Source: a virus (taxonomy: Duplodnaviria; Caudoviricetes). Taken from it: a DNA stretch of 64,000 nucleotides. Position 1 is the first letter of the stretch, and each line of letters begins with the position of its first letter. The notes under the pieces are model-generated. The model was not told the DNA's origin and did not search any database. It saw only the letters and a list, made by a program, of their open reading frames with translations. The DNA is taken from positions 1-64,000 of IMG/VR virus record IMGVR_UViG_3300028048_000121; one strand, 5' to 3'. The position numbers were made by a program, and so were the translations under genes. Of this stretch, positions 16,355 through 63,922 are shown in pieces.

Positions 16355-16782
16355 ATTTTTAATCCCTCATAATCTATAATTTCTTTATTTTGTTGTAAAG
16401 CATAATTTCTTGTGATAAAAGTTCCTCCACTGCCAACTCCATCCCATACGCATAATAATTTATCTGCGGCATCTACCATATATTTATCTCTTAGCCAATA
16501 AACATTTTTAGAATATTGCGGTGATACTATAACAATTTGATTATTTTCCATAATCCATTCTTCTGTTGGATGATAATTTTTTTTAGGAAAAGCATAACAA
16601 CAGATAATAGGTATTCCAAGTTTTTTTGCAACAGTTGCTATAATTTGATCTACCCCTTGTGCCATACCGTCATATATTACAGATGGCTGAAGGCGAATAA
16701 GTTGCTTTTCCGCCCATTCTGCTATCATTTTCTCTTGCCCTTTTAATCTCTATGGACGATGTCCTGTAACAGCTATTGTCAT
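16351..16782 (-). CDS. YspA/SLOG-family (DUF1273-like) protein, 1 in-frame TAG
   Basis: TAG read-through restores the N-terminal IAVTGHRP motif; GMAQGVD, RDKYMVD, WDG..SGGT. Confidence 0.8.
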
Positions 16783-16864
16783 ATATTTTTCCTTTCTTAA
16801 TTTCTTAATAATATTATAATATTTTTTTTTATAAAAATCAAATAAAAGTTCTATGGAATTGGAT

Positions 16865-16893
16865 TTGACAAATAAAAATTTTTTTGGTATAAT
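16865..16893 (+). promoter_or_regulatory. consensus sigmaA-type promoter at the strand switch
   Basis: TTGACA-N17-(TGG)TATAAT. Confidence 0.8.
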
Positions 16894-16927
16894 GTAATTA
16901 CAAGATTAGTAGAAAGGATATATTTTC

Positions 16928-18043
16928 ATGGAAAAAGAAAACATTATAATATCTAATAAATAGGACGATAAGAGACCTTATCCTAAACTAGATTATACTA
17001 TTATAGATATTCAAGAGAGAAATAAAAAAGTCCATGAAATTGTTAATTCTGTTCCTATATAGAAACTAACTCCTTATTATTTAGAAGAACTTACAAAATA
17101 TTTGACTGAAACACCATAGAATAAAAAAGAAAAGAAAATATTAACTGACAATAGAATGGTAACAGTAAATAAAAGAGAAATTTCATATGAAGGTCTTATT
17201 TCAAAATTAGAAAATGGTTAGGATGGTATATATAATTTTATAACTGATGGTGATAAAAATATTTTATTAGTTCCAAAAATTTAGATTACAGAAAATGATA
17301 TAGAAACAATACCAGGATTAAAAGAACTTAGAGAAGAAATTAAAAAGATAGAAATAAGACAAAGTGCGGCAAGAGGTAAACAAAAATTTTTATTAACTAA
17401 ACAGCTAATTGAAATGAGGCAAGATCAATATGTTTTAAAAAGTATTTATAAACCGCCAATTACTTTAATGAAGGTAACTAAAAATTTAAATCAAATTAAT
17501 TTAGATGAATGTATAACAGTTGATTAGAATGGTGAACCTATAAGTAATTCTTTAGTATCTTTATTTAATCCTTATCATGTTTGTTGTTTATTATGTAATT
17601 ATTCTAAATTAAAGGAGGATTGTTGGGGACATTTTGATAATGATTGGTGGTATTTAATGGAAGATTTTGATAATCTTTCAGAAAGAGCATTAAAAAAAGA
17701 TTATCCTATTTTATATGATATTATGATTTATAAAATTGATGGTATGCAAAATAAAGATATTCAAGAAAAAATAAAATAGGATTATGGAATAACTTATTCT
17801 ATTACATATCTATCTGCGGTATGGCGACAAAAAATTCCTAAAATAATTTCTGAGAAAGCAAAAGAAGAATGGATTATTTGGCATTATACTTTTGAAGAAA
17901 AGGGAAAATGGAAAAAATGTTCTCGTTGTCATTAGATTAAGCTTGCCCATCCTTATTTTTTTACAAAAAATAAAACTGCAAAAGACGGTTGGTATAGTAT
18001 GTGTAAATGTTGCAGAAATAAAAAGAAAATTAAAATTAATTAA
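16928..18043 (+). CDS. 371-aa protein with C-terminal HTH-like region and Zn finger (candidate late transcription regulator); 8 in-frame TAGs; absent from ORF track
   Basis: Open from ATG to TAA if TAG is sense; YKIDGMQNKDI..GITYS..YLS..W then CSRC..CKCC. Confidence 0.7.
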
Positions 18044-18045
18044 AT

Positions 18046-18090
18046 GGACAAAAATCTTTAATTTGTATTAATTTTTTTTATATAATATAA
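18046..18090 (+). promoter_or_regulatory. putative phage-specific (late) promoter motif GGWCAAA-N6-TAA-N14-TTTTA
   Basis: Same spacing recurs at 21185 and 24213 (+) and at ~41031 and ~55115 (-). Confidence 0.55.
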
Positions 18091-18110
18091 ATAAGAAAGA
18101 AGGAAATGTT

Positions 18111-19451
18111 ATGGCAACAAAAAAATTAAAAGGACAACAAGAAGATGCAAATGGAAAATGTCAATGTTAGAGATGCGGTAAACGCATTGGTCAAATAAAT
18201 TTTTATACATATAAAGATGGTAGCAAGTGTGAAATTTGTAAACCTTGTCTAACAGCTCGTATTGATAATTTTGATCCTACTACTTTTGAATGGATTCTTG
18301 AAAAAATGGATGTTCCTTATGTACCAACTGAATGGAATGTATTAAGAGATAGGGCTTTTGCTAAAGATCCGTACAAAATGAATGGAATGTCTGTTATTGG
18401 TAAGTATCTTGCAAAAATGAAACTGAAACAGTGGAGTAAATATGGATACGCTGATACAAAAAAGATTCAAGAAGAAATGGAAGCTGAAAAGGCTAAAAAG
18501 GAGAAAGCAGAAGCTGATGAAAAGGCACGATATGAAGCTGAGCTTAAAGTAAAATTAAGTTAGGGAAAAATATCTCCCGCTCAATATCAGACTCTTGTTA
18601 GCACAGAAACTCAAAATAAAGAGTTACTACGTTGGGGAGATGTAATCACTGGTTAGCATTTAGGTCAAATATTTTAGACTAATGGTCAACCGCAATCTTA
18701 TGAGGAAGCATTAAAGCAAGCAAAAAATCCTTTTCAAGAACAGAATTTTATGTCTGAAAGTGATATAATAGACCCTGGCGCTGATTTAGATAAAGAAGAT
18801 AAAATGTATCTTGCGGTTAAATGGGGAAGGCTTTATAAGCCTAGTCAATGGGTTGCTCTTGAACAGTTATATAATGAATTTATGGATTCTTTTGATATTC
18901 AAGGCGCGGCACGTATAGATACATTAAAAATGATTTGTAAAACTTCTTTAAAAATGAATGAAGCAATTGATTGCGGCGATATTGATTCTTATCAGAAACT
19001 ATCTCGTGTATACGATTCTATGATGAAATCCGCAAAATTTACAGAAGCACAAAATAAAGATAAAGATGGAGATGCTATTGATTCTGCATCTGCTATTGTT
19101 GATTTTGTTGAGGCTCATACTGGTGAAATTCCACGTTATGAATGTAAAGAGCCACAAGATATTGTAGATCAAATTATTGCTGATTTAAAAGCTTATAATA
19201 AGAGTTTAATTTATGAAGATAAATCTTTGGCTCAAGAAATTGAAAAATATTTACAAGATAAACGAATTTCAGAAGAAATGAAAAAAGATAAAAAAGATGC
19301 AAGAGCAAAAGGTTTGGAAAATGTTGAACTTGAAGATGATGATTTTACTGATTATAAAAATTCCTTAAATCATATGAAATCTCATGATAAAGATTTAAAT
19401 GATGAATTAATTTAGGAAGAATATATAAACAGGAGGGTTCAACACGAATGA
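18111..19451 (+). CDS. Zn-finger-containing protein upstream of TerL (possible terminase small subunit); 5 TAGs
   Basis: TAG read-through joins ORFs 18306 and 18750; its TGA overlaps the TerL ATG (ATGA). Confidence 0.7.
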
Positions 19452-21184
19452 ATTTAAAAGAGTTATTAAAATTATCTTCTGACAGAGAATATAAAAAGCA
19501 AGGAATATCAGAATAGCGATTATTAAAAGATATTACTGGATTAAGAAAATTAATTGCTTATTTTAGATAGTATCCTGATATTTTTGTTGATTTTATAAAA
19601 GGAAAAGATAGTACATTTAATTTTTTATTTTATCAAAGAGTGTTTCTTAGAATTGTTATGCGGCATCGTTATGTGTACGCGACTTTTCCGCGCGCTTATT
19701 CGAAGTCTTTTTTGTCAATGATGGCGCTGATGATAAGATGCATTTTATATCCTAACTCACATTTGTTTGTGACCACTGGCGGCAAGGAACAAGCAGCTAG
19801 TATCACAATTGCTAAGATCTAGGAAATATGTAAACTTATACCTGGTTTAAATAATGAAATTAACTGGGATCGCGGTGTTTCGACTAGATCAAAAGATAAT
19901 GTTAAATATGTATTTAAAAATGGTTCTACTATTGACATATTGGCGGCAAGACAGTCTTCAAGAGGACAACGTAGAACTGGTGGCTTGATGGAGTAGTGCG
20001 TTTTAATTGATGGTGATATTCTAAATGAAGTTATTATTCCTACAACAAACGTTGATAGACGCTTGTCTGATGGTACTCGTCATAAAGAAGAGAATGTTAA
20101 TAAATCACAGATTTATATAACCACCGCTGGATGGAAAAATTCGTTTGCATATCACAAACTGATATAGATCTTGATTAATTCAATTTTAGATCCAGATGAA
20201 TATATGATTATGGGGGGAACTTATTAGACTCCAGTTATTTCTGGTCTATTGGATGAAGATTTTGTATAGCAATTAAGATTACAAGGTACATTTAATGATG
20301 AATCATTTAATAGATAGTATCGTAGTATTTGGTCTGGTGATGTAGAAAATGCATTTTTCTCTTCTGAAAAATTTGATAAATATAGAGTATTATTACAACC
20401 ATAGTATGAATATAGCGGGCGGTCTGCAAAAAATGCATATTATGTATTTGGAATAGACGTTGGGCGTGTAGGATGTACAACTGAAATTTGTGTTTTTAAA
20501 GTAACACCGCAAATTCAAGGGGCAGCTCATAAGACTCTTGTTAATATTTACACTTATGATGCAGAACATTTTGAAACTCAATGTATTCATATAAAACATT
20601 TATATGCAAAATATAGACCTCGAAGAATTGCAATAGACGCCAATGGCTTAGGCGTTGGACTAATAGATTATTTAGTAAAAACACAAGATACAGAAGATGG
20701 CTAGTATCTTGCTCCTTTTGGAGTTTATAATACAGATGAATATCCTGAATATAAAAAATTTATAACTCCAGATACAGTACGAGATATTTTATTTTTAATA
20801 AAAGCAAATGCTCCTATTAATACTGAAGCATATAGTTATGCACAAACTCAAATGTTTAGTGGTAAAATTAGATTTTTAATTGATGAAGGATTAGCAAAAA
20901 CTAAATTAATGTCCACTAAACAAGGTCAAAATATGAACATTGATGAAAGAAATGAATATTTAAGACCTTTTATTTTAACCTCTATTTTAAAAGAACAAAT
21001 GTTAAATTTAGTAGAAGAAAATGAAGGAGTTAATATTATTCTTAAACAAAGTAATAGAAGTATCAAGAAAGATAAATTTTCTGCTTTTATTTATGGACTT
21101 TATTATATTAGATATGAAGAAGAATTAAATAAAAAGAAAAGAAAACGTAATATTTCTGATTTTTTATTTTTTACTCCAAGTTAA
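19448..21184 (+). CDS. terL: terminase large subunit (578 aa, 10 in-frame TAGs)
   Basis: Walker A FPRAYSKS, RGQRRTGGLME*C Walker B, YITTAG motif III, nuclease motifs GIDVGR / IDANGLG / KKDKFSA. Confidence 0.9.
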
Positions 21185-21333
21185 GGTCAAATTTTATTAA
21201 TGTTATAGAGAAAATTTTATAATAATAGTGAAGGAGAAAAAAGGGAACAATAGATTAGCTACCTATTGAGTAATGTTTACTCCTTTTAAACAAGCTTTTT
21301 TCTTTTTAATATTTTTATAAAGGAGATAAAAAT

Positions 21334-22239
21334 ATGAAAAAAATGACGATAGGAGAATATAATAAAAAGTTACAAGAAAAATATCCTAAAGATAATTTAT
21401 CTTGTCTTGAATATTCTTTAATGACAAAACCGTGTATAATTCAATGTAATAACTGTGGTAAAATATATTCTTTTACTCAGGGGCAATTTGCTTTAAAACG
21501 AAAAGATATATTTTGTAAAAAATGTAAAGATTCTAATAGATGGAGAGAAACTAAAGAAAAATTTAAAGATTGGTTAAATTATCAATAGAATTTTACATTA
21601 ATAGATGATTTATCAGATATTTATGATTCACAACAACATGTGAAATGTCGATGTAATAAATGTGGAAAAATTCAAGAAAATAAAAAAATTTATGATTATT
21701 TACGAGGTGTTCGATGTTATTGTGAAACTAAAAGCAGTAAAAAGACAGAATAGATCTTGAGAAAAGAGTTGGATAATGAATATGATTTTTCTTTTGAAGA
21801 ATATGTAAATACAGATACAAAAATGAATTTTATACATAAAAAGTGTGGACAGAATTTTATTTATACGCCAAGGGATTTATTACGTAATTATGGGTTTTGT
21901 CCTAATTGTAATAAAAATCGTTCACATGGTGAAAATACAATTCATAACTTATTAGTTGATGCTTCTATTTCTTTTATAGAAGAATATCAAATTAATATAG
22001 ATAAACGAACCTTGAGATTAGATTTCTTTTTACCAAAAAATAATATTGCGATTGAATTTAATGGGATTCAACATTATCAATCTATATAGCATTTTGGTGG
22101 ATAGGAAGCCTTTATAAAAAGACAAAGATATGATAATATAAAAAAACAATGGTGTGAACATAATAATATTAAATTAATTATTATAAAATATGATGAAGAT
22201 ATATTAAAAAGGTTAGAGATGGAAGGGGTTATAAAATGA
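21334..22239 (+). CDS. Zn-ribbon plus PD-(D/E)xK (DUF559/Vsr-like) endonuclease; 4 TAGs
   Basis: Repeated CxxC, S.GE..I, LRLDFFL...AIEFNGIQHY; TGA overlaps the next ATG. Confidence 0.75.
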
Positions 22240-22592
22240 AGGCATCGAGAGGTGAAATAAAGATTTTTTAGATTCTAAAATAGTCTGGATTAGAGTTCGC
22301 AGAAGAATACTCTTTTCCAGATTTAGTAAGTAATATGGGTCGTCCATTAAGATTTGATTTTGCGGTTTTTGATGATTAGCATAATATTGATTTTCTTATT
22401 GAATTTCAAGGTATTCAACATTATGAAGCTAAAGAAAAATTTGGTGGTTATAATGGATTAAGAAAACAACAATATAATGATATGAAGAAAAGATAGTATT
22501 GTCGAGATCATGGTATTAATTTAGTTATTATTCCTTATTGGGATTAGGCAATAGTAACCTATGATTATATTCTCAATGCGGCGGGCTATTGA
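22236..22592 (+). CDS. small DUF559/Vsr-like endonuclease; 5 TAGs; absent from ORF track
   Basis: SRGEIKI..LRFDFAV..LIEFQGIQHY..FGG..D..KR*YC..IPYWD. Confidence 0.8.
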
Positions 22593-22612
22593 AGAAGGAG
22601 AGGTATCTAAAG

Positions 22613-24193
22613 TTGATTAATCGAATGGCTTAGATAAAAAAGAAAGGCTTTAATATGATTGGCACTGAAGATGATCAAATTCTTAATTAGGCTAATGGTT
22701 CTTATGTACCTGTTGATTTTGCAAAAATTCGAGTTGGAGTAAAATCTGTTTCAGATGCAATTCTTAAATTAGGTGATTTTCGTAAAATAAGTCCACAGTT
22801 AGCAGATAAGGTACAAGTTTTAAGAGCGATTCATTATGGTGACCTTGATAGAATGAGAGATATATCTAATTATTTTTATAAAATTAGTGGTATTTATCAA
22901 AGGTTATGTCGTTATATGGCATATATGTATAGATATGATTGGCTCGTAACTCCTTATTATGATACTGATACAATTAAACCAAATAAATTACTCGATGGTT
23001 TTAATAAAGTTTTAACATATTTGGATAAATTTTAGGCGAAAAAATTTTTTGGTGAAGTTGCTTTAAAAGTAGTTAGAAATGGCTGTTATTATGGTTATTT
23101 AATTGCACGTAATGGAACTGTTGTTGTTCAGGAGCTACCACCAAAATATTGCAGATCACGTCTTATTGTAAATGGACAACCAGCTGTTGAATTTAATATG
23201 AAATATTTTAATGATATGTTCATGGATACAGAACAAAGAGCAAGAATGTTAAAAATATTCCCACCAGAGTTTGAAAAGGGTTATAAATTATATAAACAAG
23301 GAAAATTAAAACCTGAATTTCCTGGAGATGAATCTGGTTGGTATTTACTTGAAGTTGGTTCTGTTATTAAATTTAATTTAAATGGAGAAGATTTTCCACC
23401 TTTTATTGCGGTTATTCCTGCAATCATTGACTTAGATGCAGCTCAAGATCTCGATCGCCGCAAGATGCAACAGCAATTATTAAAAATCATTATTCAGAAA
23501 ATGCCTATTGATAAGAATGGTGATTTGGTATTTGATGTGGATGAGGCACAACAACTCCACAATAACGCAGTGCAAATGCTATCAAAAGCTATTGGTATTG
23601 ATGTTCTAACAACTTTTGCTGATGTTGAAGTTGCAGATATGGCAGATAATAAAACATCAACAACTACAGATGATTTAGAAAAAGTGGAACGCACAGTTTA
23701 TAATGAAGCTGGTGTTTCACAGATGCAATTTAATACTGATGGTAATATTGCTCTTGAAAAATCTATTTTAAATGATGAAGCTTCAATGTGGAATTTAATT
23801 CAACAATTTGAAACATTTTTAAATATTTTATTAATACCATATAATAAAAGTCCAAAGAAAGTAAGTTATAGAGCGCAAATTCTTCCTACTACAATTTATA
23901 ATTATAAAGACTTAGCTAAACAATATAAAGAACACACTCAATTAGGATATTCAAAAATGTTACCACAAATAGCTTTAGGACAATCTCAAAGTGCAGTATT
24001 AGCTACGGCATACTTTGAAAATGATATTCTTGATTTAGTTAATGTATTTATTCCACCATTAATGTCTAGTACAATGAATGCAGAAGTATTAAATCGTAAT
24101 AAAAATAATAGTGGAGAAGGGGCGGGTAGACCTGAAAAAGCTGATGATGAAAAGTCTACTAAAACATTACAGAATCAAGAATCATTAAGTTAA
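22613..24193 (+). CDS. portal protein (SPbeta-like); TTG start; 3 TAGs
   Basis: 526 aa after read-through, lies between terminase and protease, GGAGAGG SD. Confidence 0.75.
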
Positions 24194-24263
24194 AAAATTT
24201 TTAAAATTTTTTGGACAAAAGTTATTAAAGAAAAAAGTTAATTTTTTATTATATATATGAGGG

Positions 24264-25625
24264 ATGAAAGGAGAATTTTTACTTATGCATCAATCAGTTG
24301 CAACAATTGATTCTCCAGAATTTTTAAATCTTCAACCTCTTGATATTAACCCTTTAATGTCAAAATGTGAAATTAAAGTCCTTTATGTAGGAGCTAATAG
24401 AAACCACACTTTTATTAGTGAAGAAGTTGCGGCTGAGATTGGTAAAACTCTTCGTGGCGCCCCTATTGTTGGTTATTATAAATAGAGTAAAGAAGATTTC
24501 AGAGATCATGGAGAAAAAGTAATTATTGATGATGAAGGAGTTAAATTCGAATGTCAAACTATTCCTTATGGATTTGTAGCACCAGATGCTAAAGTTTGGT
24601 TTCAAAATTTTGAAGACCATGATGGAATGGGAAATTCAGTAATTCATAAATATCTTATGACTACTGGTTATCTCTGGACAGGTCAATTCCCAGAATCCAG
24701 CTTACCTGTGGAAGAAGGTCGTCCGCAATCAATGGAACTTCAAAATGAATCTGTACAAGGACATTGGGAAACTAATTATGATAATGGAATGGACTTCTTT
24801 ATTATAAATGATGCAATTATTCAAAAAATTTGCATATTAGGAGACGATGTTGAGCCTTGCTTCGAAGGCGCTTCTGTAACGGCTCCAGATGTAAGTACAA
24901 AATTTACATTAGACGATAATTTTAAGCACACACTTTATAGTATGATGCAAGATTTAAAGAATGCCCTAAACGGAGGAGGACAACAGATGGATAATCTTGA
25001 AAACACTGTTTCTGTTGAAGAAGAGACTGTAACACCTGTATCTGATTTTACTCAGGTAGACGAAGTAGCTTCTGAAACAGTTTCAGAGGTTAATGAAAAC
25101 ATAGAGGATACTTCTGCTCCTGCTGATTATGTAAAAGAAGACGATGAAAAGAAAGAAGAATCTGATGATTCTGATTCTGATTCTGAATCTGAAGATGGTA
25201 ATGATAAAGAGGATGAAGATAAAGAAAAAGCTAAAAAGTATGATTTACTTGAAGAGTCTTTTAATATTTTAAATGAATCTTTTAATACTTTAAAAGATTC
25301 TTATAGCGCACTTCAAAGTCAATATCAAGAACTTGTAAATTTCAAGAGAGAAATTGATAATCAGAAAAAGGATGCCCTTATTGCTGAATTTTATATGCTT
25401 TCCGATGAGGATAAAGCAGATGTCATTCAGAATAAAGAAAAGTATACTTTAGAAGAAATTAAAGCAAAACTTTCTGTAACTTGTTTTGATAAAAAAGTTA
25501 GTTTTTCTAAAGAAGAAACTAATAACAAGGAAGAAGAAATTGTTACTTATACAATAAATGATAATGAAAACAACAGCCTACCAGATTGGGTGAAAGCTGT
25601 TAAAGAACAAGAGAAACTTGGTTAA
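24264..25625 (+). CDS. prohead protease/scaffold protein; 1 TAG (start may be 24285)
   Basis: GANRNHT..GAPIVG..PYG..QSMEL..ICILGDDVEPCFEGA followed by an acidic coiled-coil scaffold-like tail. Confidence 0.75.
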
Positions 25626-25650: not shown

Positions 25651-26238
25651 ATGGCAGATATTAAGAGAAAAGGCTATGGACAGGTTGAGCCTAATCACCT
25701 TTCTGGTATTGTCACTGGTCAGATTTATGCACAATTACCTGCAATGACTATTACTACAACTGGTTCAGGTGAGAGTGCGGTAACTACAAAGACTCCAATG
25801 AATCAGCTTGAGCAGGGTCAATTTGCAAAATATGATTATGCGGCTGGCGCTGTAGATTTTACCGGTGAGGGTGAATTCATGCTTGTCTATAATGAAGAGA
25901 AACTTTATGATGAGAGAAAACAATCTCATAAAGATTTTGTTTATAAGGCAACAGATTTTACAGATGGAAAAATGTTTCCACGTTTAATTAGAACTTATAT
26001 TGGAGATATTTTTACAACTAATATGATTGGTGCTGCTAATACCGCCGATAGTGAAACTGATGTTACTATTGGTACAGATGCAACTTTAGTGGTCGGAGCT
26101 TATGTTGCTCCAAATGCAAATACTGGAATTTTAACAGTTTCAGCTAATAAACCAGCTAGTGGTATGGCATGGAAGATTGTTAAAGTTTATACAATGCCAG
26201 ACGGTCAGTTTGGTGTTAAGATTCAAAGAGTACAGTAA
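25651..26238 (+). CDS. capsid-associated/decoration protein
   Basis: Directly upstream of the major capsid gene; GYGQVEPNHLS; strong SD; no TAG. Confidence 0.6.
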   Translation: MADIKRKGYGQVEPNHLSGIVTGQIYAQLPAMTITTTGSGESAVTTKTPMNQLEQGQFAKYDYAAGAVDFTGEGEFMLVYNEEKLYDERKQSHKDFVYKATDFTDGKMFPRLIRTYIGDIFTTNMIGAANTADSETDVTIGTDATLVVGAYVAPNANTGILTVSANKPASGMAWKIVKVYTMPDGQFGVKIQRVQ

Positions 26239-26255
26239 TAAGGAGGAAAGAAAAA

Positions 26256-27332
26256 ATGGCATTAACAAGAGATCAACTTATTGAGTTAGCTAGAGCCAAT
26301 GCGAAAGCTTCATTAAATCCTTCTGTTGCTTATTCTTTTGGCGGCGAAAAGCTTTCAGCGGAAGCTTTGAATAAAACATTTATTAAGGAGTTAAATGAAC
26401 TTGGTTCTACTCCTCAGGATTTTAGAGAAAATAAAAATCTTATTTATACATTAATGGAAGTCGGTCTTACTGAGGTTCTTCCTCAGAAGGTAATGCAAGC
26501 TTATGGACAGTTTGCTGATGTTCGTACTTTTGCACAGGGTGTGAAACCTGTTTATAAAGTAAGAATTAGTGAAGCTTCCAAGAAACGTGCTAAGCAGTTT
26601 GTTACTAGAGTCGGTCTTGCTGGTAGATATGAAGTCTTTAAACTTGATGGATATTCACTTGAAGTTCCTACAGCTGCTTATGGCGGAGCTTCTCGAATTG
26701 AATGGGAAGAGCTGCTTGATGGTCGTATGACTATGAATGATTATTACAGCCTTGTTCTTGAAGGAATGGATGAAGCTGTTTATAAAGAAATTGCAAAAGC
26801 ACTTGAAGCATTAATTAATGTTGTTCCTGCACTTCAGAAAGTTGTAAGAAGTGGATTTAGTGAGACACATATGGATCAGCTTCTTTCTATTGCAGATAGT
26901 TATGGTGGAAAGAGTACAATTTATTGTACTTTTGAATTTGCTACTACAATGCTTCCTTCTACAGCAAATAATTATGCTTCCTGGTCTGATGCAATGAAAG
27001 ATGAGATTTGGGCAAATGGATATTTTGCAACGTATAAGGGACATAGAGTAATTATCTTACCACAGTCTTTAGAAGATAATGCTGGTAAGACTGCAACTCG
27101 TGTAAATAAGGTTATTAATCCTCAGTTTGCTTATATTATCCCAACTGGCGCTGAAAAGCCTGTTAAGGTTGCATTTGAGGGCGGTGCTCAGGTGAAATCT
27201 TTTGATAACCGCGATTGGTCTACTGAAATTCAGACTTATCAGAAACTTGGTGTAGCTACTTATTTAGTTAATCCTGGAATTTGTGTCTACCAAAATGAAG
27301 CTTTAAATCCTTATATTGGATTGCTTAACTAA
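26256..27332 (+). CDS. major capsid protein
   Basis: 358 aa, position after the protease, biased codon usage, terminator follows; no TAG. Confidence 0.8.
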   Translation: MALTRDQLIELARANAKASLNPSVAYSFGGEKLSAEALNKTFIKELNELGSTPQDFRENKNLIYTLMEVGLTEVLPQKVMQAYGQFADVRTFAQGVKPVYKVRISEASKKRAKQFVTRVGLAGRYEVFKLDGYSLEVPTAAYGGASRIEWEELLDGRMTMNDYYSLVLEGMDEAVYKEIAKALEALINVVPALQKVVRSGFSETHMDQLLSIADSYGGKSTIYCTFEFATTMLPSTANNYASWSDAMKDEIWANGYFATYKGHRVIILPQSLEDNAGKTATRVNKVINPQFAYIIPTGAEKPVKVAFEGGAQVKSFDNRDWSTEIQTYQKLGVATYLVNPGICVYQNEALNPYIGLLN

Positions 27333-27349
27333 TAGTATTTAAAATTACA

Positions 27350-27387
27350 TAGGGGAGGATTATTAATAATTCTCCCCTTATTTTTTA
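27350..27387 (+). terminator. intrinsic terminator after the major capsid gene
   Basis: AGGGGAG..CTCCCCT hairpin plus T-run. Confidence 0.7.
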
Positions 27388-27415
27388 TAATAGGAGATAA
27401 AAGGAGTTTTAAATT

Positions 27416-28000
27416 ATGGATAAAAATAAAATGGTAAAAGTTATTAATAAATTTAATGGTATTGTTGGATATGAAGTTCCAGAGTTAGGTGTTAATAGAA
27501 CTTTTTATCCTAGAGAAAGTAAAAATATTAGTTATGATGAATTAGAAAAGTTATCATATTTACCTGGCGGTTCTTCTATTTTAAGAAATTATCTTGAAAT
27601 TACTGATGAAGAAGTTATAATGGAATTGTTTAATATAAAGCCTGAACCAGAGTATCATTATTCTGAAGATGATGTAAAAAAATTACTTATAACAGGTTCA
27701 TTAGATCAGTTTTTAGATTGTTTAGATTTTGCTCCTCCAGTGATCATAGATATGATTAAAGATATGGCGGTTACACTTCCGCTTAATGATATGGCAAAAA
27801 GAGAAGCTATAAAAGATAAAATAGGTTTTGATGTAACAAAAGCTATTGAAATTAAAAATACTAAATATGATGGAGAAGTAGAAAATGATGTTGAAGAAAA
27901 AGTTTCAACTTCTGGACGTAGAACAGCTCCAATTAAAAATGATAATTCATCTGCTGCCCCATCTGGACGTAGATATAAACCAATTACTAAAAATGATTAA
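27416..28000 (+). CDS. hypothetical virion-module protein
   Basis: 194-aa ORF with SD. Confidence 0.7.
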   Translation: MDKNKMVKVINKFNGIVGYEVPELGVNRTFYPRESKNISYDELEKLSYLPGGSSILRNYLEITDEEVIMELFNIKPEPEYHYSEDDVKKLLITGSLDQFLDCLDFAPPVIIDMIKDMAVTLPLNDMAKREAIKDKIGFDVTKAIEIKNTKYDGEVENDVEEKVSTSGRRTAPIKNDNSSAAPSGRRYKPITKND

Positions 28001-28021
28001 TTTTTATTAGGGGGTATATAA

Positions 28022-28735
28022 ATGAATACAACTTCATTTTCACTTGTATATGACTCCTTTCTTTCAAAAATTACAGATGATATGTATCTAGAATTAACAG
28101 AATTAGATACATTTAGAATGTTAGAACAACTTTTACTTTCTGCTATTGAAAAATTTGAATTTCCCAGAGTAAATTTATGGGATTATGAATTATTTGAAAT
28201 TGTAGATGAAGTAACTTACAATGGAATAGAAAGCAATTATCAGGATGTTCAAGCGATTATTTATGATGGTGGTTATTTTAATAATAATTTAACTCATGAA
28301 GAAATTAATGTTTTAGCTGTTTACATGATTGTAGAATGGTTAAGTCAACAATTAGCAAGCGTTGAAAATACTCGAATGAAGTATAGTGGTTCTGATTTTA
28401 AATTTACTTCTCAAGCTAATCATATGCAAAAACTTTTGCAAATGAAGAAAGATTATGAAAGAGAAGGTTTTCATCTTCAACGATTATATAAAAGAAGAAT
28501 ACAGGATAAAAGAGGTGTTATGCGTTCAACTTTTGGAGTTATTATGCAGCCTACATTTTATCCATCAGATGATCTTACACAAGATGAATATAGAAATAGA
28601 AATGTTATTAATTATGAAGATTTAATTAATAAACCAAAAATAGAACATCATGAATTAATTAATGATAAAACTTTTGATGAATTAGATATGTCAAGAATTG
28701 ATTTTGATGAGCTTGATAATATCACTTCATCATAA
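28022..28735 (+). CDS. putative head-tail adaptor
   Basis: F..VYD.FLSKITDD..EI..LA..M..EWL..DFK..SQANH; position in module. Confidence 0.6.
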   Translation: MNTTSFSLVYDSFLSKITDDMYLELTELDTFRMLEQLLLSAIEKFEFPRVNLWDYELFEIVDEVTYNGIESNYQDVQAIIYDGGYFNNNLTHEEINVLAVYMIVEWLSQQLASVENTRMKYSGSDFKFTSQANHMQKLLQMKKDYEREGFHLQRLYKRRIQDKRGVMRSTFGVIMQPTFYPSDDLTQDEYRNRNVINYEDLINKPKIEHHELINDKTFDELDMSRIDFDELDNITSS

Positions 28736-28751
28736 AATGGGGGGTGTAAAT

Positions 28752-34956: not shown

Positions 34957-34979
34957 TTAGATTGGTGGTATATAGAAAC

Positions 34980-50376: not shown

Positions 50377-52157
50377 TAAAAATAATACCCCTCATCTATA
50401 ATTTCAATATTTTCAACAATTAATTGAGGATAAATTTTATTATTCCAAAAATTTTGATTGCATTTGCAAATTGCATTTGCTTCTTTAAATTTATCTGGTT
50501 GAACAGTAAATTTTTCAATCTATTCTTCAGTTCCATTAAACTTAATAATAGATAATCCATTTTTAAGATTAAATTTTAAAGTATTACTTTTCATTATTTG
50601 AAAATTAGAATTTGTAATTTTAAAATTAATATTTACATAAGCTCTATCAATATCTTGTCCCCAATAGTCATTCATGTTTGCAATATCTAATATTGTTTGA
50701 TTATTATTTTCATTTTCTTTAAAATCATAATCAATTCTGTAAATAGGCTCAATAGATACATCTTCTAATAGTTGATCAATATGATAAAGAAAATTATTAA
50801 CTTGATTTCCTTTTATTCCAATACCATGTGCATTATCATGTCCTTCTACATAAATTACTTCAGGACATTGTTCAAGAATTTCTTTAAAACTATTAATTCC
50901 AGTTTTTGTATATCCGCGTCCAGAACCTTCATATGTTTCCTCACCTTTTCTATTGGTTCTCGTTAATAAACAACATGGTCTTTGATATTTTGCCATAAAT
51001 TTATTTGCAATCAAACCGCGAATTTCAGAATCAATTTGACCAGGTTCTAATAAAAATAAAAGAATTTTATGGTCAAGCATATGATTAGTTTCAATCATTT
51101 TCTCTAACATAGCCAAACCTGCATCTTCTGCTCTTGTCTGTCTATTTTTAACATTTGTAACTATTCTAATTGCTTGTAAAATTAATTTTTCTGTCTCTCC
51201 TAATTTATGTCCATGTTTATTTGAAATAACTTCTTCAAATGCTTTATGATTTAGCATAGCATTAAATAATAAATTTTTCTATTCTATAGTGCCACTTCTG
51301 GTAATAGCATTAACAAAAGGAACAATAAAAAAGGCGGCGCCGATAGAAGTACAACTCATATCAGAATTAGAAGGAATATAGTCTGGTTTAGTTAATGGAA
51401 AAGAGTTTTTATCAAGCATATAATCAATAAAAGGATTTTTTATATTCTATTTTTTAAATCCTTTTGTAATTAAATAGCGAGTTTCAAATGAACGTAAACT
51501 CATCATATCTGCATCTAATCCAAGAGCAACTAAATCAATAAAATTATCAGCATAATTTACATTTAATATACTATCTATATATCGACAAAATTGCCAGACT
51601 ACGCCAACACCAGATAATTCTTTATTAGGATAATCAGATAATTGATTATTAATAATTACTGCATATTCACTAATATGATCTGCTAAATGGTGGTCTAATA
51701 CTAATACTCCTATTCCTTTTTTAAATAGTTGATAATGATAATCATAATCATTGCTACTTGAATCTGGACAAATTACTAATGAATAATTATTAGATATTTT
51801 ATTTATACAATCAGATAAGCCATGCTGCTTACTATCATGCATTATCCATGTTAAATGATTATTAATCCAAGTTGGAAATATTGAATATAAATAATTAATT
51901 AAAAGGGCGGCTGATGTATATCCATCGCAATCACAGTCTACAACAATTAAAGCATTTTGATTCTTTGATATTGTATTAAGTAATAATTTTAATCCATCTT
52001 TTAAATTTTTCTATCCTAATAATAAGGGTGAATTAATATCTTTATCTGATAAATTTATATAATGTAATATATCATTTTCTGCAATACCTCTATTATATAA
52101 AACTTGTTGAATTGCTGAAAAATTTTTATTTGGTTTATTTATTAATTCATATTTCAT
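50376..52157 (-). CDS. recJ: RecJ-like DHH ssDNA exonuclease; 4 TAGs
   Basis: VDCDCDGYTS, VLDHH, LSGVGV, GSGRG and GHDNAHG all in one frame after read-through. Confidence 0.85.
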
Positions 52158-52216: not shown

Positions 52217-52891
52217 TCAAGTCAATTCTTTCTTTTTCCAATAGTAATTTTTATATTTAGTATGTAATTCTATTGCTCTAGTTAAAGGTTCGTAACAAGT
52301 AATATTTAAATAATTTAAAGCTTCTTTTTTAGAATCAAATGTTTTTAATAAAATTTCATTATCATCAAACATTTGGATAGCAATTTTATTATTTGGTTTT
52401 CTTAATTTAGCTTTTTCACTCATAATTTTTTTAGCTTCAGTAGAATGCTTTTTGCCCTTAAAAGGATTTTCATGCGTTAAAAAATATTCTTTTTGTTGTT
52501 TGCTAAGTTTAGCTTTTTCTTTTTTACCTTTATCAGTCTAATAATACTTTTTTAAAGAATTACTAATTTTTAATTTTAATTCATCGGTTTTTTCTGGGGT
52601 TGCATCTCCACCTGCTGTTTGATTATATCCATATAAACTATTATTAGTGTTATATAAAGCAATTAATTCAATTTCTTTTTGTTTAGCCTATTGCTCTGTT
52701 AAATTTGTAAAAAGAATTTTATGCTAAAAATTATTCCATCCATATTTCTAAATTGCTTTATAAAAAATTTGTCGTTTATAGCCTAAACCATTTTTCCATC
52801 TTTTATTTGGATCTTTTTCTGATGTAATACCAATGTATTTTTTATTATTAATTTTATTAATATGAATATAAACTTGCCACTTATTTTCCAT
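52217..52891 (-). CDS. GIY-YIG homing endonuclease; 4 TAGs
   Basis: VYIH.NKIN.K.YIGIT, AI*KYGW.NF*H, GYN.T.GG, KGKKHS. Confidence 0.85.
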
Positions 52892-53996
52892 CGGCATCTA
52901 ACCTTTCTTGTAATAATTGTAAAAATATTTCTTTTCCCTTGTCAATTGGAGCATCTTTGTAATCTAATAAATTTTTAGTATCAAATATAAAACTAATATT
53001 ACAAAAATTTCTATATTTTTGAGAAATCTTTTTTAATTTATTAATCCATATTTGATATTCTTCATCTCCTATTTTTTGATATTGTCGATCAAAAGCAATT
53101 ATAATTTCTTTTACCCCTAAATTATAAAGTAATAAAAATTGATAATTTAATAGATTACTACCACAAACCGCCCCTGTAATATCATTTTCAATACCAAAAT
53201 AACTTGCATATTTTAAGCAACTTTTTTCTGATTCAAAAATAATTGCTTTTTGAAGTTTTTTTATATTCTCTTTTGAATTATTTAAATTATAAATATTAAA
53301 AGACAAAGGATGATTATATAATTTGCCATTTAAATAAGCAGGACGATATTTACCTTGTATTTGTTCATTCTCTTTGATAAGAGTTCTTTCCCTAATTCCA
53401 ATAAGATTTCCATCTATATCATAATGTGGTATTACAATACCCTCATTAATAGGATCATAACATATTCCTCTTGATTCTATAACATTAAAAGTTATATCTT
53501 CTTTTTCCCATGGAATGATGCGGGGATGAGGTAAATATCTTAATATTTTATTATCATAAACTTTTAATTCTATAATTTGCGGTTGAGTTTTTTCTTTGTT
53601 TCTTTTAAAATTATTAATAATTTGCCAATCTTCATTTGCTTCTTGATTATCTTCAAAATCAAAAGTTTCTGCTGTATATCCAAAATATTTAGCGACAAAA
53701 GCAATAGCACGAGGTAAGGAAAAATTTTGGATACCAGCAGTTTTATTTACTCTTAATACTAAATCATATATATCAAATGAAGCATCTCCGCATCCTGTGT
53801 AACAATGAAATAGATGTGTATTTGAATAGTAATAAAGTTTGTGACTCGCATTAGTTAAATCACTATTATGACATATTGTTTTACAAATAATACAATTATC
53901 TTTAAGAATTGGCTCTGCCCCTAATTCTGTTAATAAATCATAGACTTGCTCTAAAGTTAATTCTTTTTTTAATTCTTCTTTATCATATTTATACAT
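52881..53996 (-). CDS. DNA primase (DnaG-like)
   Basis: TICH..KLYYY..FHCYTGC Zn domain; TOPRIM FESEKS..AFD; no TAG. Confidence 0.8.
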   Translation of the reverse strand: MYKYDKEELKKELTLEQVYDLLTELGAEPILKDNCIICKTICHNSDLTNASHKLYYYSNTHLFHCYTGCGDASFDIYDLVLRVNKTAGIQNFSLPRAIAFVAKYFGYTAETFDFEDNQEANEDWQIINNFKRNKEKTQPQIIELKVYDNKILRYLPHPRIIPWEKEDITFNVIESRGICYDPINEGIVIPHYDIDGNLIGIRERTLIKENEQIQGKYRPAYLNGKLYNHPLSFNIYNLNNSKENIKKLQKAIIFESEKSCLKYASYFGIENDITGAVCGSNLLNYQFLLLYNLGVKEIIIAFDRQYQKIGDEEYQIWINKLKKISQKYRNFCNISFIFDTKNLLDYKDAPIDKGKEIFLQLLQERLDADGK

Positions 53997-55008
53997 AGCT
54001 TTCTATTGCCCTATAAACAGTTCTTTCTGAACATCCAATTTGATTTGCAATTTCTTTTTTTGTAAATTTTCCAGTTAAATATAATTTATAAATTTGTTCA
54101 TATCTTTCAGATTGCATTTTTTTATTTTGTGGATTATAATTATTTCTATTATAAATAGGATATTCTTTATAGGTTTTTCCTTTTAACATATCACAAAAAG
54201 CATCATAAGATATTTTGTCAGCTACTTCGCTATTTTTCCAAATATCTTTCATAGTTAATTGGGTATTTTTATATTGAGTTCTATATTTTATAACTTGTTC
54301 TTTTGAAAATTTAAATTGTTTAATTAAATCTCCATCAACATCTTTTCTTGTTTTTCCAGTTGTTAAGGATGAAATTTGACTTGTTGTTGTATTATATTTT
54401 ATAGCTAAATCGGTCGTTGGTATACCAGATTTTCTTAATTCACGAATCTATTTTACTTGATTGTCGGTAAATTTTTTAACTCCATTTAATTTGCTTAATG
54501 GATATATTTCTTTATCACTATGCCAAGTTCTACCAGTATTTATTGCACTAATCATTCCCATTGTTGCTTGTGGAATAATTAATTGTATTTCTTTAACAGA
54601 TTTACCCTTTTTTAATTCTTCTCTTATTATTTTCGCTTCTTGCTAAGTAATTTTATGATTTGGTCTTTGTTCACCTTTTAAATGTGGATAAGTCTGTCCT
54701 CCAATAGTATGATTATATCCATTTGGAGTTATACTATTAAATTTTCTTATATAATATTGCTCTCTTTCATCCAATAAATTTTCAGAACAATATTCAATTA
54801 TTTCAAAATTAAAATCAGAATCATTTTGACTTTTCATCATATCTTGATGAATTTCCATATTTACTTCTGTTTTTAAGCTACTCTATTTATATTGATCTGG
54901 ATGTAGAAAACACCAATGACGCCATTTTCTATTTTGTAAATCTACCGCACGTCCAATATAAATTTTATTATTTTTTAAATTAGTAATTTTATAAATACCG
55001 CTTTTCAT
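53989..55008 (-). CDS. GIY-YIG endonuclease with HTH repeats; 3 TAGs
   Basis: SGIYKITN..IYIG, LDERE.YYI..PNGYN; C-terminal IA..IGCSERTV. Confidence 0.8.
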
Positions 55009-55118
55009 ATGCTATCTCCTATCTGACACAACCTAAATTTAAATAAAGTTCATTTCTTTCTCTTCTGTGTCATAATATATTAAAATTACTAATAATAAAT
55101 TAATTAAGTTTGTCCAAA

Positions 55119-59382: not shown

Positions 59383-59479
59383 ATAATCTCCTTAAAAATT
59401 TTCTATTTATATTATAACAAAAAAAAGAAAACTTGTCAAAGTAATAAAACCTTTGACAAGTTTCTTTAAAAATATATAA

Positions 59480-60520: not shown

Positions 60521-60572
60521 AATGATAATATCCTTTCTTTATAAGAAAGGGAGAAAATTAATTCTCCCTTTA

Positions 60573-61562: not shown

Positions 61563-61625
61563 TAAATTATTTTCTCCTTATTAAATCAACTTTATTTCTG
61601 TATTTATATTATATCAAAAATTTTT

Positions 61626-62033
61626 TTAATTTTCAAGTTGATAACTCTTACCAGCTTCAGTAAGAGAATATTTAACAGGATCCTTTCCTGTTTTTTCAAC
61701 ATAACCATCTGCAATTAGTTTTCGCATAGAACCAGCAATAGAGCGGCCGCTAGTAAAAAGAGCCTCCGCCGCCTCCTTAGATGTAAAAACATTAGACATT
61801 GCATCTGTATTCTCTTGCATCCAAGAAAGCAACTTTTTGCCATTTTCTGTTATTGCTGCTCCTGAATCTTTTACTTTTCCGTCTTTAAAATCTTTCCAAA
61901 ACTCCATCGCAATATCATAATCATTTGTTGTAATATTATATTTTTCACTTATATCATTCATATAAGTTATCTCATCTTCAGCAATTTTAATTGCAACCTC
62001 AATAAATTTAATAAAAGTTTCTTTCTTAGTCAT
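61626..62033 (-). CDS. winged-helix DNA-binding protein
   Basis: FTSKE.AE.LF.SGRS..GSMRKL..DGYVEK...PV.Y.LT. Confidence 0.7.
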   Translation of the reverse strand: MTKKETFIKFIEVAIKIAEDEITYMNDISEKYNITTNDYDIAMEFWKDFKDGKVKDSGAAITENGKKLLSWMQENTDAMSNVFTSKEAAEALFTSGRSIAGSMRKLIADGYVEKTGKDPVKYSLTEAGKSYQLEN

Positions 62034-62101
62034 TTGCGATTTTTTCCTTTTTATTTATAATATAATTTTTATCTTATAATTATATTATAACATTTTATTT
62101 T

Positions 62102-63001
62102 TTATTTTTCAATTTGAAAAGGAATATTTTCATCATCAAAAATTAAATATTGAGCATAAGGAAGCTCACGTGCCCATTTAATAAAATTTATTTTAGATGG
62201 GTCATCTTGCCCGCTCCACTCATTTAATTTATGATTACGTCTTTGTCCAGGAGAACAAATGGCGCGGATAGTCTCATAATTAGCTGTCCAAGTTCTCGTT
62301 TGAAGCCAACTTTCAGGCAGCCACCGCACAAGTTCTTTCCAATATCTTTTATCTTTTGTTTCAAGATATTTTTGACGAAGAAATTCGAGTTGTTCAATTA
62401 AAAGTTCAGAGAACATATTAATATCATTTTCAGCAGGTCCGCCCGCATATTCTGGGATGCTATAATAAATTAAATCAGAATGCATATCATCTGTTTCAAA
62501 ACAATCAAGAGTAATTGGCGTTACAGCTAATTTATGCATTTTAGATGTACTATTAGCAACAGTAGCAACTTTGTAGGTGTCAATTTCGCTCCAAAAATAC
62601 ATTGGCGCAGTAATATCAACAGAAACAAAAATTTGACGTAAAAACTTGCGGTGTTCAGGACCAGCTTTAATTAATGTTTGAGCGAGCTTCATATCATTTG
62701 GTCCGATAAAAGCTACTTCTGCAGCGCCATCGCATTCATTAATTTTTAATATACCATTATTAATTAATTTTTCAGAATATTGCTCACAAAGGCTATCACC
62801 TTCTTCAGTATATTGATCCGGCCAGTTGAGATCTGGATGTGATAAATTAATCCAATTATCTGCAATTTCACTTTCATGAGGATATTCATCAATATTAATA
62901 ATCCCAAAAAAACTATCACTATTATTCCAACTGTTTTTAGGATTTCTCATACCCCGTAGGGCGCCTTCAAAATTAGATACATATGTATTTTCAAATTTCA
63001 T
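62102..63001 (-). CDS. ThyX/Thy1-like protein
   Basis: HRKFLRQI.V.VDITAP.Y.W.E.DTYKV..NS.S.MH, LP.S..Q.RT, QR..HKL.EW. Confidence 0.65.
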   Translation of the reverse strand: MKFENTYVSNFEGALRGMRNPKNSWNNSDSFFGIINIDEYPHESEIADNWINLSHPDLNWPDQYTEEGDSLCEQYSEKLINNGILKINECDGAAEVAFIGPNDMKLAQTLIKAGPEHRKFLRQIFVSVDITAPMYFWSEIDTYKVATVANSTSKMHKLAVTPITLDCFETDDMHSDLIYYSIPEYAGGPAENDINMFSELLIEQLEFLRQKYLETKDKRYWKELVRWLPESWLQTRTWTANYETIRAICSPGQRRNHKLNEWSGQDDPSKINFIKWARELPYAQYLIFDDENIPFQIEK

Positions 63002-63004
63002 ATT

Positions 63005-63922
63005 TTAACCATTTCCTTTTGTAGAATTATAACCAAATTTATTACTTTGATACATGTTTATCCAAAACTTTTCTTTTTCATTTAAATTTTCTTTTGGACA
63101 TTCTTCTAATAATTCAAAACTAAAATTCCAAATTTTATCTCGTTGCATGGCATTATATAAAATATTTGTTGCAGAAGCTTCAATACCCAAACCGCATTTA
63201 CAATGTTGTTTCCATCTATCACTAATATTAACGCTTTGTCCAATATAACATTGTTCAGTTAATAAATTAGTAATTTTATAAATTCCACAAACTATTTTTT
63301 TACCTAAAATTCTATCACATAACTCTGTCATTTGTTTTTGAAAATATTGAGTCCATATAAGTTTACTTAAAACAACAGGTTTATGAAAAGAAGTTTTTAG
63401 ATTTTCTAACATTTTTACATCAGATAAATCAGCATCATTTATAGATAATTTATAAAATCCTATTTTATCTTTCTTCTATTGTTCGCGGAGACGTGCCTAT
63501 ACACCTGCACTTAATGAAGCTTTTAATTTATTAATTTCATTTTGGATATTTTGTTTTTCAATTTCTGCATTTTTTTGAAAACATTGTACATCATATTTTA
63601 TATCTTCAATTTGTTCTTGTGCAGATTGATTTGTTTTATTAATAGCCTATTTTGCAAGCTATTGCTGACTTTCTAAATATGTCTCAATTTCTTTTTTTCG
63701 AGATTCTTGAAACTATAATAATTCTTTATTTAATTCTTTCTTTTGTTCATTTTTAAAATTAAGTAAATTATATTTTTCTAACTGTAAATTATTAATTTCA
63801 CGATTTAATATTTTTTTATACTATTCTTGTTGTTCATTTTTATTAATTTTAATTTGATTAGCTTTATAAAAAAGAATTATTCCACATATTAGAAAAATAA
63901 AAGCTAATATTAATGATGTCAT
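63005..63922 (-). CDS. membrane anchor + coiled coil + C-terminal GIY-YIG domain; ~6 TAGs
   Basis: MTSLILAFIFLICGIILFY, long heptads, CGIYKITN..CYIGQS; ATG with SD at 63922. Confidence 0.75.

Follow-up and report, generated by a model that had tools for sequence, protein, structure and literature searches.

Introduction

Several groups of phages read the amber codon TAG as an amino acid. In the code 15 phages, among them crAss-like, Lak and Garnet phages (Borges et al., preprint 10.1101/2021.08.26.457843; Peters et al., PMC9523058), and according to its authors also in phAss-1 (OQ749652), of the proposed Phassvirus group (Babkin et al. 2023, PMC10607447), that amino acid is reported as glutamine. 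Here we describe a virus of the Caudoviricetes from positions 1 to 64,000 of IMG/VR record IMGVR_UViG_3300028048_000121, a stretch of 64,000 nucleotides that we call the window. Its UAG is very probably a sense codon for glutamate, with TAA and TGA as the stops, and would be decoded by a phage suppressor tRNA derived from tRNA-Glu.

In the code 15 phages, recoding lies mostly in late genes, the suppressor tRNA is encoded by the phage and the hosts use the standard code. The Borges et al. preprint gives TAG to Gln and TGA to Trp as the only changes in phages that differ from the code of their host, and takes the glutaminyl-tRNA and tryptophanyl-tRNA synthetases (GlnRS and TrpRS) as the enzymes susceptible to code change. 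Mgcod models amber as Gln only, and a survey of 180 phage suppressor tRNAs (PMC10879173) lists Gln, Trp, Ile and Tyr types and no Glu. In the literature that we searched, which left subscription journals and supplements outside its coverage, phage TAG has so far been reported only as Gln and TGA as Trp or Gly, and we found no report of a phage in which TAG means glutamate. This agrees with a first-pass annotation of the window, made from the sequence alone, which proposed glutamate and described this assignment as known from some ciliates and Blastocrithidia but not from phages. Glutamate is a known meaning of UAG in eukaryotes: in Blastocrithidia UAG is read as glutamate, with UAA reassigned too. 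In the nuclei of peritrich ciliates (NCBI table 30) both TAA and TAG are Glu.

In-frame TAG codons

The window covers the first 64 kb of a virus contig of 81,750 bp that has 30% G+C and no N. Within it, 103 in-frame TAGs lie in 25 open reading frames (ORFs) that end in TAA or TGA, which bears out an earlier hand count of about 100 in about 26 genes. On the whole contig there are 114 such TAGs among 63 ORFs called, 54 of which end in TAA and 9 in TGA; these endings follow from the definition of the ORFs, which are delimited by TAA and TGA. Under translation table 11 the block from 16.9 kb on breaks into short ORFs, and the genes for the large terminase (TerL) and the portal are fragmented. With TAG read through, there are long single ORFs, for example a TerL of 578 amino acids with 10 TAGs (19448-21184). 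Reading through TAG had been said to give full-length genes, and these could be named as TerL and portal with PHROGs and as RecJ-like and endonuclease genes with Pfam. Genes overlap by ATGA at 19448-51, 22236-39 and 33097-100 and by TAATG at 30892-96. On the plus strand TAG is present at 19514-16, 19568-70, 19994-96, 20315-17, 22102-04, 22494-96 and 29188-90, and on the minus strand it is read from CTA at 50074-76; every one of these positions had been given correctly. The observation of in-frame TAGs is confirmed.

The TAGs recur outside this contig. A complete relative of 132.7 kb, G001, has 59 TAG sites in common with it. A scan of IMG/VR with TerL gave 79 loci, with in-frame TAGs in the homologous genes of 43, none in 35 and one unclear; in the 43, the TAGs often fall on identical sites. 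The first-pass annotation had named assembly error as a way in which the TAGs could be spurious. The TAG sites of TerL show 0 differences in contigs assembled from an independent DNA run (X1, covering 19697-20265) and from an RNA-library run (X2, covering 19795-20646; RNA libraries can contain DNA, and this coverage bears on sequence, not expression). GAG is still used, with 163 codons, and the trinucleotides TAG and CTA are symmetric (964 and 970), which together exclude a systematic read error from GAG to TAG. Many public proteins homologous to TerL begin directly after its TAG positions 183 and 290, namely those of clusters P0011, P0054, P0060 and P0065, which start near residue 180-184, and of P0039, P0058, P0072, P0076, P0084 and P0096, which start at residue 292-293. 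These part-proteins are remnants of standard-code gene calling on recoded relatives.

Residues aligned to TAG

We aligned the TAG-bearing proteins, with X at each TAG, to the DNA of relatives and tallied the residue opposite each X. Three or more standard-code homologues were available for 49 TAG sites, where the consensus was E at 24, G at 5, A at 4, Q at 3 and N at 3. The same alignments served as calibration: E codons of the window had consensus E in 238/371 and Q in 15/371 (4%), and Q codons had consensus Q in 83/192 and E in 16/192. The share of Q at TAG columns (6%) is close to that of true E columns and far under that of true Q columns. With empirical substitution frequencies, the log-likelihood of the TAG columns was -112.0 for E, -139.0 for D, -140.6 for N and -140.7 for Q. 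Conserved TAG columns that were mostly Gln had been named beforehand as an outcome that would speak for the usual assignment, and this is not what the columns hold.

Comparison of the whole contig with complete standard-code relatives, which includes minus-strand genes such as the RecJ-like one, placed E opposite 27 of 57 aligned TAGs and Q opposite 3 in G005, and E opposite 20 of 54 and Q opposite 5 in G009. In the RecJ-like protein, G005 has E at each of TAG columns 49, 293 and 546, and G009 or G001 agrees at two of the three. At 67 TAG sites of the window, recoded relatives have GAA 531 times, TAG 453, GAG 113, CAA 62 and CAG 14. Since GAA is two base changes away from TAG, and CAG, TAT and AAG are only one, the exchange follows meaning and not mutational nearness. 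Where G001 has a sense codon at a TAG site of the contig, it is Glu in 12 of 24 cases, including a GAG at TerL 183.

The reverse comparison gives the same picture. TAGs of recoded relatives stand opposite E of the window far more often than opposite any other residue; in locus L031 this holds for 54 of 97 TAGs, with 5 opposite Q. As a control we used phAss-1, whose published assignment is Gln: 8 of its 20 aligned TAGs are opposite Q of the window and 1 is opposite E, so the method is able to call Gln where Gln is meant. Taken with the Glu-type tRNA(CUA) of complete relatives described below, the homologue columns, the reverse comparison and this control support the claim that TAG is Glu and not Gln. 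We saw no pattern of in-frame TAA in the alignments of related loci.

TAG sites in the large terminase and other genes

For TerL we assembled a deep sample of 47 full-length, mutually distant homologues from a search of 1.8 billion cluster representatives. Residue 183, encoded by the TAG at 19994, is E in all 47. Residue 290 (TAG at 20315) is E in 39 and residue 319 (TAG at 20402-04) in 37. Over the ten TAG columns of TerL the mean fraction of E is 0.42 and that of Q is 0.06. The window's own E columns in TerL have 0.31 E and 0.05 Q, and its own Q columns have 0.11 E and 0.30 Q.

Residue 183 is the last position of a motif, GGLME-TAG in the window and hhh[D/E]E in every homologue, that lies about 95 residues past a P-loop-like PRAYSKS. 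In PRAYSKS, R82 and K86 are invariant in both TerL alignments and S87 in the closer one. By motif pattern alone, residue 183 fits the catalytic Glu of Walker B, as had been proposed for this site. No related PDB sequence emerged from searches with TerL as a single sequence and as a profile, in which a CutA protein had the best E, 0.3. For TerL 1-330, AlphaFold2 with a 12-row alignment gave a model of low quality (mean pLDDT 42), which we set aside.

The other sites that had been put forward as Glu-like fared unevenly. The TAG at 20315 lies in a column dominated by E. At 19514 (TerL 23) the deep sample has E in 15 and D in 8 of 47. At 19568 (TerL 41) the column is variable, with A in 12, W in 7 and E in 3 of 47; E does occur there in 4 of 9 closer homologues. 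For 22494, E accounts for 2 of 5 sense residues. The pair of paralogues at 29188 and 30265 aligns as claimed, with X opposite D. For the TAG at 50074 in a GIY-YIG endonuclease there was no informative homologue among the relatives aligned. The assignment of TAG to Glu does not depend on 22102, 19568 or 50074, the weak sites.

The probable suppressor tRNA

A search beyond the window for a tRNA with a CUA anticodon, which had been recommended, succeeded in relatives only. Each of six complete members of the recoded clade (G001-G004, G006 and G007) has exactly one tRNA(CUA), and none was found in the three complete standard-code relatives G005, G008 and G009. Among the five distinct CUA tRNAs of the clade, G2.U71 and C3-G70 occur in 5/5, and A73, a 27-nt 5' half and a 5-nt variable loop in 4/5. 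The 5' half is closest to Glu in 4/5. The anticodon loop is CUCUAAA in the clade tRNA(CUA) versus CUCUCAA in tRNA-Glu(CUC). In the same sets, tRNA-Gln and tRNA-Trp mostly have G2-C71 (28/33) and G73 (30/33), with U1-A72 or A1-U72 in 30/33. The CUA tRNAs of the clade lack U1-A72, and with their G2.U71, C3-G70 and (in 4/5) A73 they do not look like Gln-type suppressors. In acceptor stem, discriminator base and D arm these tRNAs of relatives agree with a suppressor derived from tRNA-Glu, with a loop that differs at position 36 alone and with the 1:72 pair and the anticodon stem as exceptions. Matches in a BLAST search of 200 Bacilli-class genomes that span most of the CUA tRNA are mostly tRNA-Glu. 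The D arm of the clade CUA tRNAs is one base away from that of 8/8 tRNA-Glu genes of Bacilli-class genomes, although this bacterial set was chosen by similarity to the query and the likeness is partly built in.

Whole-tRNA pairwise identity among the phage tRNAs pointed to no isotype for the CUA tRNAs (outside the CUA tRNAs the best scores, 0.64-0.74, went to Asn, Lys, Met, Asp and Trp), and the informative comparisons are those of segments and identity elements only. The most likely decoder is a phage-encoded amber suppressor tRNA(CUA) that came from a Bacillota-type tRNA-Glu(CUC) by a change of C36 to A. For the virus of the window, its gene would lie beyond the contig, in the tRNA array: compared with G001, a right-hand 50 kb is absent from the contig, and the G001 array of 23 tRNA genes sits there.

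The built-in likeness of the tRNA-Glu set is one of several points that weigh against a glutamate code read by a tRNA-Glu-type suppressor. The 81,750-bp contig itself has no tRNA that ARAGORN could find, so that its suppressor has to be deduced from relatives at about 90% identity. Where tRNA-Glu has G-C at 1:72, 4/5 of the CUA tRNAs have C-G. With the anticodon masked, the anticodon arm is identical to tRNA-Trp arms in 3/5, and the strongest local BLAST hits in the 200 genomes are tRNA-Trp at 15 of 30 loci and tRNA-Glu at 8. A Trp-like arm suited to codons that start with U may have been selected or recombined in, which is speculation. On the protein side, about half of the TAG columns (25/49) are without an E consensus, and at 22102, a site (FGG, TAG, EAF) that had been offered as a Glu context, homologues have L, K, I, Y, W and V and never E. 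Laboratory tRNA-Glu amber suppressors of E. coli, in literature of around 1990, were reportedly mischarged largely with Gln by the E. coli GlnRS. Finally, the assignment of a host by binning, taken up below, is weak, and binning artefacts may be involved.

Two observations concern other tRNA-like features. The stretch 4659-4742 (minus strand) resembles a tRNA: its T arm and acceptor pairing are good, and its anticodon arm, built in two tiers, has a 7-nt loop centred on CUA. As a decoder it was rejected: it has no ARAGORN or Rfam match (E up to 1), and the corresponding place in G001 is similar in the T arm and 3' end only and shows no CUA loop. tRNA genes with the anticodon UUA, like ochre suppressors, occur in the TAG-recoded G002 (L118:6223-6297) and in the standard-code G005 (L124:6066-6136); no in-frame TAA was seen in the TerL-region alignments of these two genomes (loci L011 and L049).

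Charging enzymes and the host

Neither an RF-1 domain nor a gene of the GluRS/GlnRS family (glutamyl- or glutaminyl-tRNA synthetase) was found in five complete clade members. Because no synthetase gene was found there, enzymes of the host must charge the tRNA(CUA). TerL relatives were binned in three metagenome-assembled genomes (MAGs), assigned to Erysipelotrichaceae, Endomicrobiaceae and a Clostridium sp. Two of the three have gatB and no GlnRS above the cut-off, and the third has both. GlnRS was above the cut-off in 42 of 101 genomes of the class of the first MAG, so it cannot be assumed that the host lacks GlnRS.

The amidotransferase GatCAB accepts tRNA-Gln and rejects tRNA-Glu by way of U1-A72 and the length of the D loop, and hosts that use GatCAB have a non-discriminating GluRS that takes both C36 and G36. 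This would make tolerance of A36 by such a GluRS plausible. In the mechanism we propose, the GluRS of the host would charge the tRNA(CUA) with Glu. The charged tRNA should be neither glutaminylated by GlnRS nor amidated by GatCAB, because it has A73, G2.U71, C3-G70, no U1-A72 and a long D loop of the tRNA-Glu type.

Distribution of TAG and timing

The packaging and virion block (16.9-36.8 kb) and the homing-endonuclease genes are rich in TAG, which is also present in the RecJ-like gene. TAG is absent from the genes for DNA polymerase, NrdD and other large replication proteins and from four head genes. Several TAGs stand within a few codons of the TAA or TGA end of a gene.

The first-pass annotation found no gene that clearly ended at TAG, and this is not quite so. 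In the leftward early region, the TAG at 15732-34 of a minus-strand ORF (15732-16154) is exactly opposite a TAA stop of G001, with a TAA three codons further on (15723-16154 in full). This is likely a TAG at the true stop position of an early gene, judging from the alignment. Such a TAG agrees with the model of the preprint by Borges et al. (10.1101/2021.08.26.457843), under which early genes follow the host code and a suppressor acts later. Under our mechanism UAG would probably terminate translation before the suppressor is made and be read as Glu thereafter.

Alternative explanations

The alternative that survives best, though we hold it to be unlikely, is ambiguous decoding: UAG would yield a mixture of Glu and Gln, through GatCAB amidation or mischarging, or a mixture of Glu and termination throughout infection. 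The gatB genes of the candidate host MAGs, with GlnRS below the cut-off in two of three, mean that machinery for amidating Glu-tRNA is present, and the one early gene with TAG at its stop position and the TAGs close to gene ends also speak for some mixture. However, in the alignments the TAG columns have no excess of Q over true E columns, and the clade tRNA, without U1-A72 and with its long D loop, is of the kind that GatCAB rejects. A minor share of Gln would nevertheless escape a comparison of sequences.

Plain glutamine (code 15), as in crAss-like phages, Lak and phAss-1, with the Glu columns due to chance or to tolerated changes of E to Q, is very improbable. In its favour, the literature surveyed reports no other reassignment of TAG in phages, and Q is the consensus at 3 of the 49 TAG columns, with site 36650 opposite Q, Q and R. 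But that share of Q, like the mean of 0.06 in the deep TerL sample, is what true E columns show. Moreover, the terminase ATPase would have Q in place of the invariant E of its hhh[D/E]E motif, the method that gives Glu here does give Q for phAss-1, and the tRNA(CUA) of the clade is without U1-A72, G2-C71 and G73.

We give still less credence to a suppressor derived from tRNA-Trp by a change of CCA to CUA, with TAG as Trp, or to TAG as pyrrolysine. The first would account for the Trp-like anticodon arm in 3/5 and the local BLAST hits to tRNA-Trp, and the second matches the label 'tRNA-Pyl' that ARAGORN prints for any CUA anticodon. W is the consensus at 0 of the 49 TAG columns, though W columns are the best conserved (39/53), and tRNA-Trp differs from the clade tRNA in acceptor stem, discriminator base and D arm; K, as a stand-in for pyrrolysine, is not enriched at TAG columns.

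That the TAGs are untranslated, as assembly or sequencing errors, pseudogenes or part of a defective genome, has a negligible chance of being right, as nothing was found in its support beyond the contig being a fragment (81.7 kb of about 133 kb), and the recoding recurs in related loci from many metagenomes and at the sites common with G001, the frame is kept through all of TerL, independent contigs from runs of several studies agree exactly, and public protein predictions break directly after TAGs as expected when intact genes are called with the standard code.

Relatives and phylogeny

The best explanation of the window is that it is the left and central part of an approximately 133-kb phage of the cattle gut that is SPbeta/YonF-like and distantly related to phAss-1. 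G001 is collinear with contig positions 2657-81682, mostly at 83-96% nucleotide identity (about 90%). Public runs of bovine gut samples from 11 studies contain the stretch or part of it, and the clade is common in cattle-gut data. Beyond the end of the window, a long TAG-rich ORF at contig 78375-81750 (plus strand) runs off the contig and matches the start of a G001 ORF of 2861 amino acids with 45 TAGs, which is probably the tape measure.

A tblastn search with TerL matched 120 phage records, 116 of which cover at least 80% of TerL, and the matches include phages of Enterococcus, Geobacillus, Bacillus and Lactococcus at 32-45% identity. Identity of TerL is 44.7% to phAss-1 and 74.6% to an unannotated faecal phage scaffold. 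Homology to YonF-type TerL and the shared portal and head module place the virus among the phages of Bacillota with large terminases of SPbeta/YonF type.

A quick maximum-likelihood tree was built from 47 distinct TerL rows. All 22 that carry in-frame TAG, among them the window, fall into a single clade (SH-aLRT 100), which is nested within the standard-code rows, and phAss-1 stands apart on a long branch. This suggests that amber recoding arose twice in the family, each time for another amino acid, a reading of the tree that is tentative because of that long branch and the midpoint root. A fuller scenario, which we think has an even chance of being right, is that one family captured UAG twice, for Gln in the phAss-1 lineage through Gln-type tRNAs and for Glu in the rumen clade through a tRNA-Glu(CUC) changed at one base, and that the Glu code depends on the stage of infection, with UAG ending early genes and meaning Glu in late ones. 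If this is true, the amino acid that can be assigned to UAG would depend on the route by which the host makes Gln-tRNA, and the GluRS of GatCAB hosts could accept a CUA anticodon.

Gene content of the window

Gene names are from PHROGs for TerL and the portal and from Pfam for the DHH/RecJ-like protein and three GIY-YIG endonucleases. With X at each TAG, Pfam gave no family for TerL and most virion ORFs at E up to 0.01.

The left arm of the window (1-16700) holds short ORFs only, mostly on the minus strand, and seems sparsely coding; those of its ORFs without TAG terminate in TAA or TGA. At 11484-11596 there is a long, near-perfect inverted repeat, with arms of about 23 nt around 11511-11570 and further pairing outside. 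It has weak Rfam scores as plant or animal miRNA precursors and looks like an operator or terminator hairpin in this gene-poor arm.

The plus-strand packaging and virion block opens with an ORF of 371 amino acids with 8 TAGs (16928-18043), matching the PHROG 'sigma factor' (phrog_5767), whose TAG columns are mostly E in relatives. It is followed by an ORF of 446 amino acids with 5 TAGs (18111-19451; phrog_3314, function unknown), which lies upstream of TerL and overlaps it at ATGA, and by the YonF/SPbeta-type TerL. Downstream of TerL are a Zn-ribbon/DUF723-like ORF of 301 amino acids with 4 TAGs (21334-22239), an ORF of 118 amino acids with 5 TAGs (22236-22592), the portal protein of 534 amino acids with 3 TAGs (22589-24193; phrog_2739, E 2.9e-84) and an ORF of 453 amino acids with 1 TAG (24264-25625; phrog_3313, function unknown). 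The four TAG-free ORFs of the head module (195, 358, 194 and 237 amino acids) occupy 25651-28735, of which 26256-27332 is phrog_4088.

The 301-residue ORF is probably a mobile endonuclease gene. It falls in an insertion polymorphism (21243-22271): it is not in G001, and 21242 is followed directly by 22272 in some contigs of runs X3 and X11. Instead, an insert of about 0.85 kb lies inside TerL in G001 and several IMG/VR relatives, where matches span about 2.58 kb versus 1.74 kb. Both this insertion and the TerL insert of the relatives are probably mobile elements of homing-endonuclease or intron type.

The rest of the virion module, also on the plus strand, has TAG-bearing ORFs at 28662-29162 (6 TAGs), 29176-30249 (3), 30265-30894 (2), 31154-31504 (3), 31486-32472 (6), 33097-33837 (4), 34962-36212 (13) and 36245-36799 (1). 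Two ORFs among them, 32498-33100 and 33892-34902, are free of TAG, and the latter is a virion structural protein by PHROGs. If started at its first ATG, the ORF at 28662-29162 shares 74 nt with the end of 28022-28735. Its true start appears to be an internal ATG near 28752 (MPKYLD...), which would remove one of the 6 TAGs.

On the minus strand, PHROGs identify a TAG-free NrdD-like reductase of 642 amino acids (38816-40744) and a TAG-free DNA polymerase of 1324 amino acids (41454-45428). Further along are a GIY-YIG endonuclease with 4 TAGs (49690-50376), the DHH/RecJ-like protein with 4 (50376-52157), a second GIY-YIG endonuclease with 6 (52217-52984), an ORF with 1 (52881-54050) and a GIY-YIG+HTH ORF with 4 (53989-55029), all but the single-TAG ORF named from Pfam. 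An ORF of 305 amino acids with 6 TAGs (63005-63922) has a C-terminal GIY-YIG homing-endonuclease domain and matches homing-endonuclease PHROGs, one of them with a GIY-YIG motif.

Comparison with known systems

Phage amber recoding is known, and the analysis supports glutamate, inserted by a putative tRNA-Glu-type suppressor, as what is new. In the clade as a whole, TAG is in frame, conserved and aligned with Glu, and the tRNA(CUA) of its complete members is, judged on sequence, of Glu type. This has practical consequences. Annotation tools and the NCBI 'code 15 clade' assume Gln, and table 15 is then wrong at every TAG, including probably the catalytic Glu of TerL. Standard-code gene calling has already left many protein fragments of these phages in public sets. 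Because the clade reads TAG as Glu, a synthetase other than GlnRS or TrpRS would be recruitable for a code change in phages. The clade also offers a natural Glu-inserting amber suppressor for study.

Among described phages, phAss-1 is the nearest comparison. It too is a large gut phage (about 136 kb) with a homologous TerL, a common head and packaging module and TAG as a sense codon in virion genes, and it too has tRNA(CUA) genes (here in clade members) among many phage tRNAs, with no dedicated synthetase found. It differs in that its TAGs stand opposite Q, whereas those of the window align with Glu and the clade tRNA is of Glu type. phAss-1 has three CUA tRNAs. By our reading of their sequences, two combine G73 with U1-A72 or U1.C72 (the table of identity elements scores one of these two differently), and the third has a long extra arm. 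Standard-code lineages lie between phAss-1 and the recoded clade in the TerL tree, which is a quick one with phAss-1 on a long branch.

Like the code 15 phages, this virus carries in-frame TAG in intact genes closed by TAA or TGA, and some of its genes avoid the recoded stop; unlike them, it has Glu as the amino acid and, in its clade, a tRNA body of Glu type. With table 30 and the Blastocrithidia code it has UAG as Glu in common, but those codes are eukaryotic nuclear and the window is from a virus of bacteria. Tables 30 and 31 also reassign UAA together with UAG, and here TAA ends 54 of the 63 ORFs of the contig. The decoder also has a parallel in the laboratory tRNA-Glu amber suppressors of E. 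coli, which likewise combine a tRNA-Glu body with CUA. The natural clade tRNA, with A73, G2.U71 and C3-G70, is unlike every tRNA-Gln in our sets and probably works in hosts that make Gln-tRNA by amidation, a host assignment that is weak.

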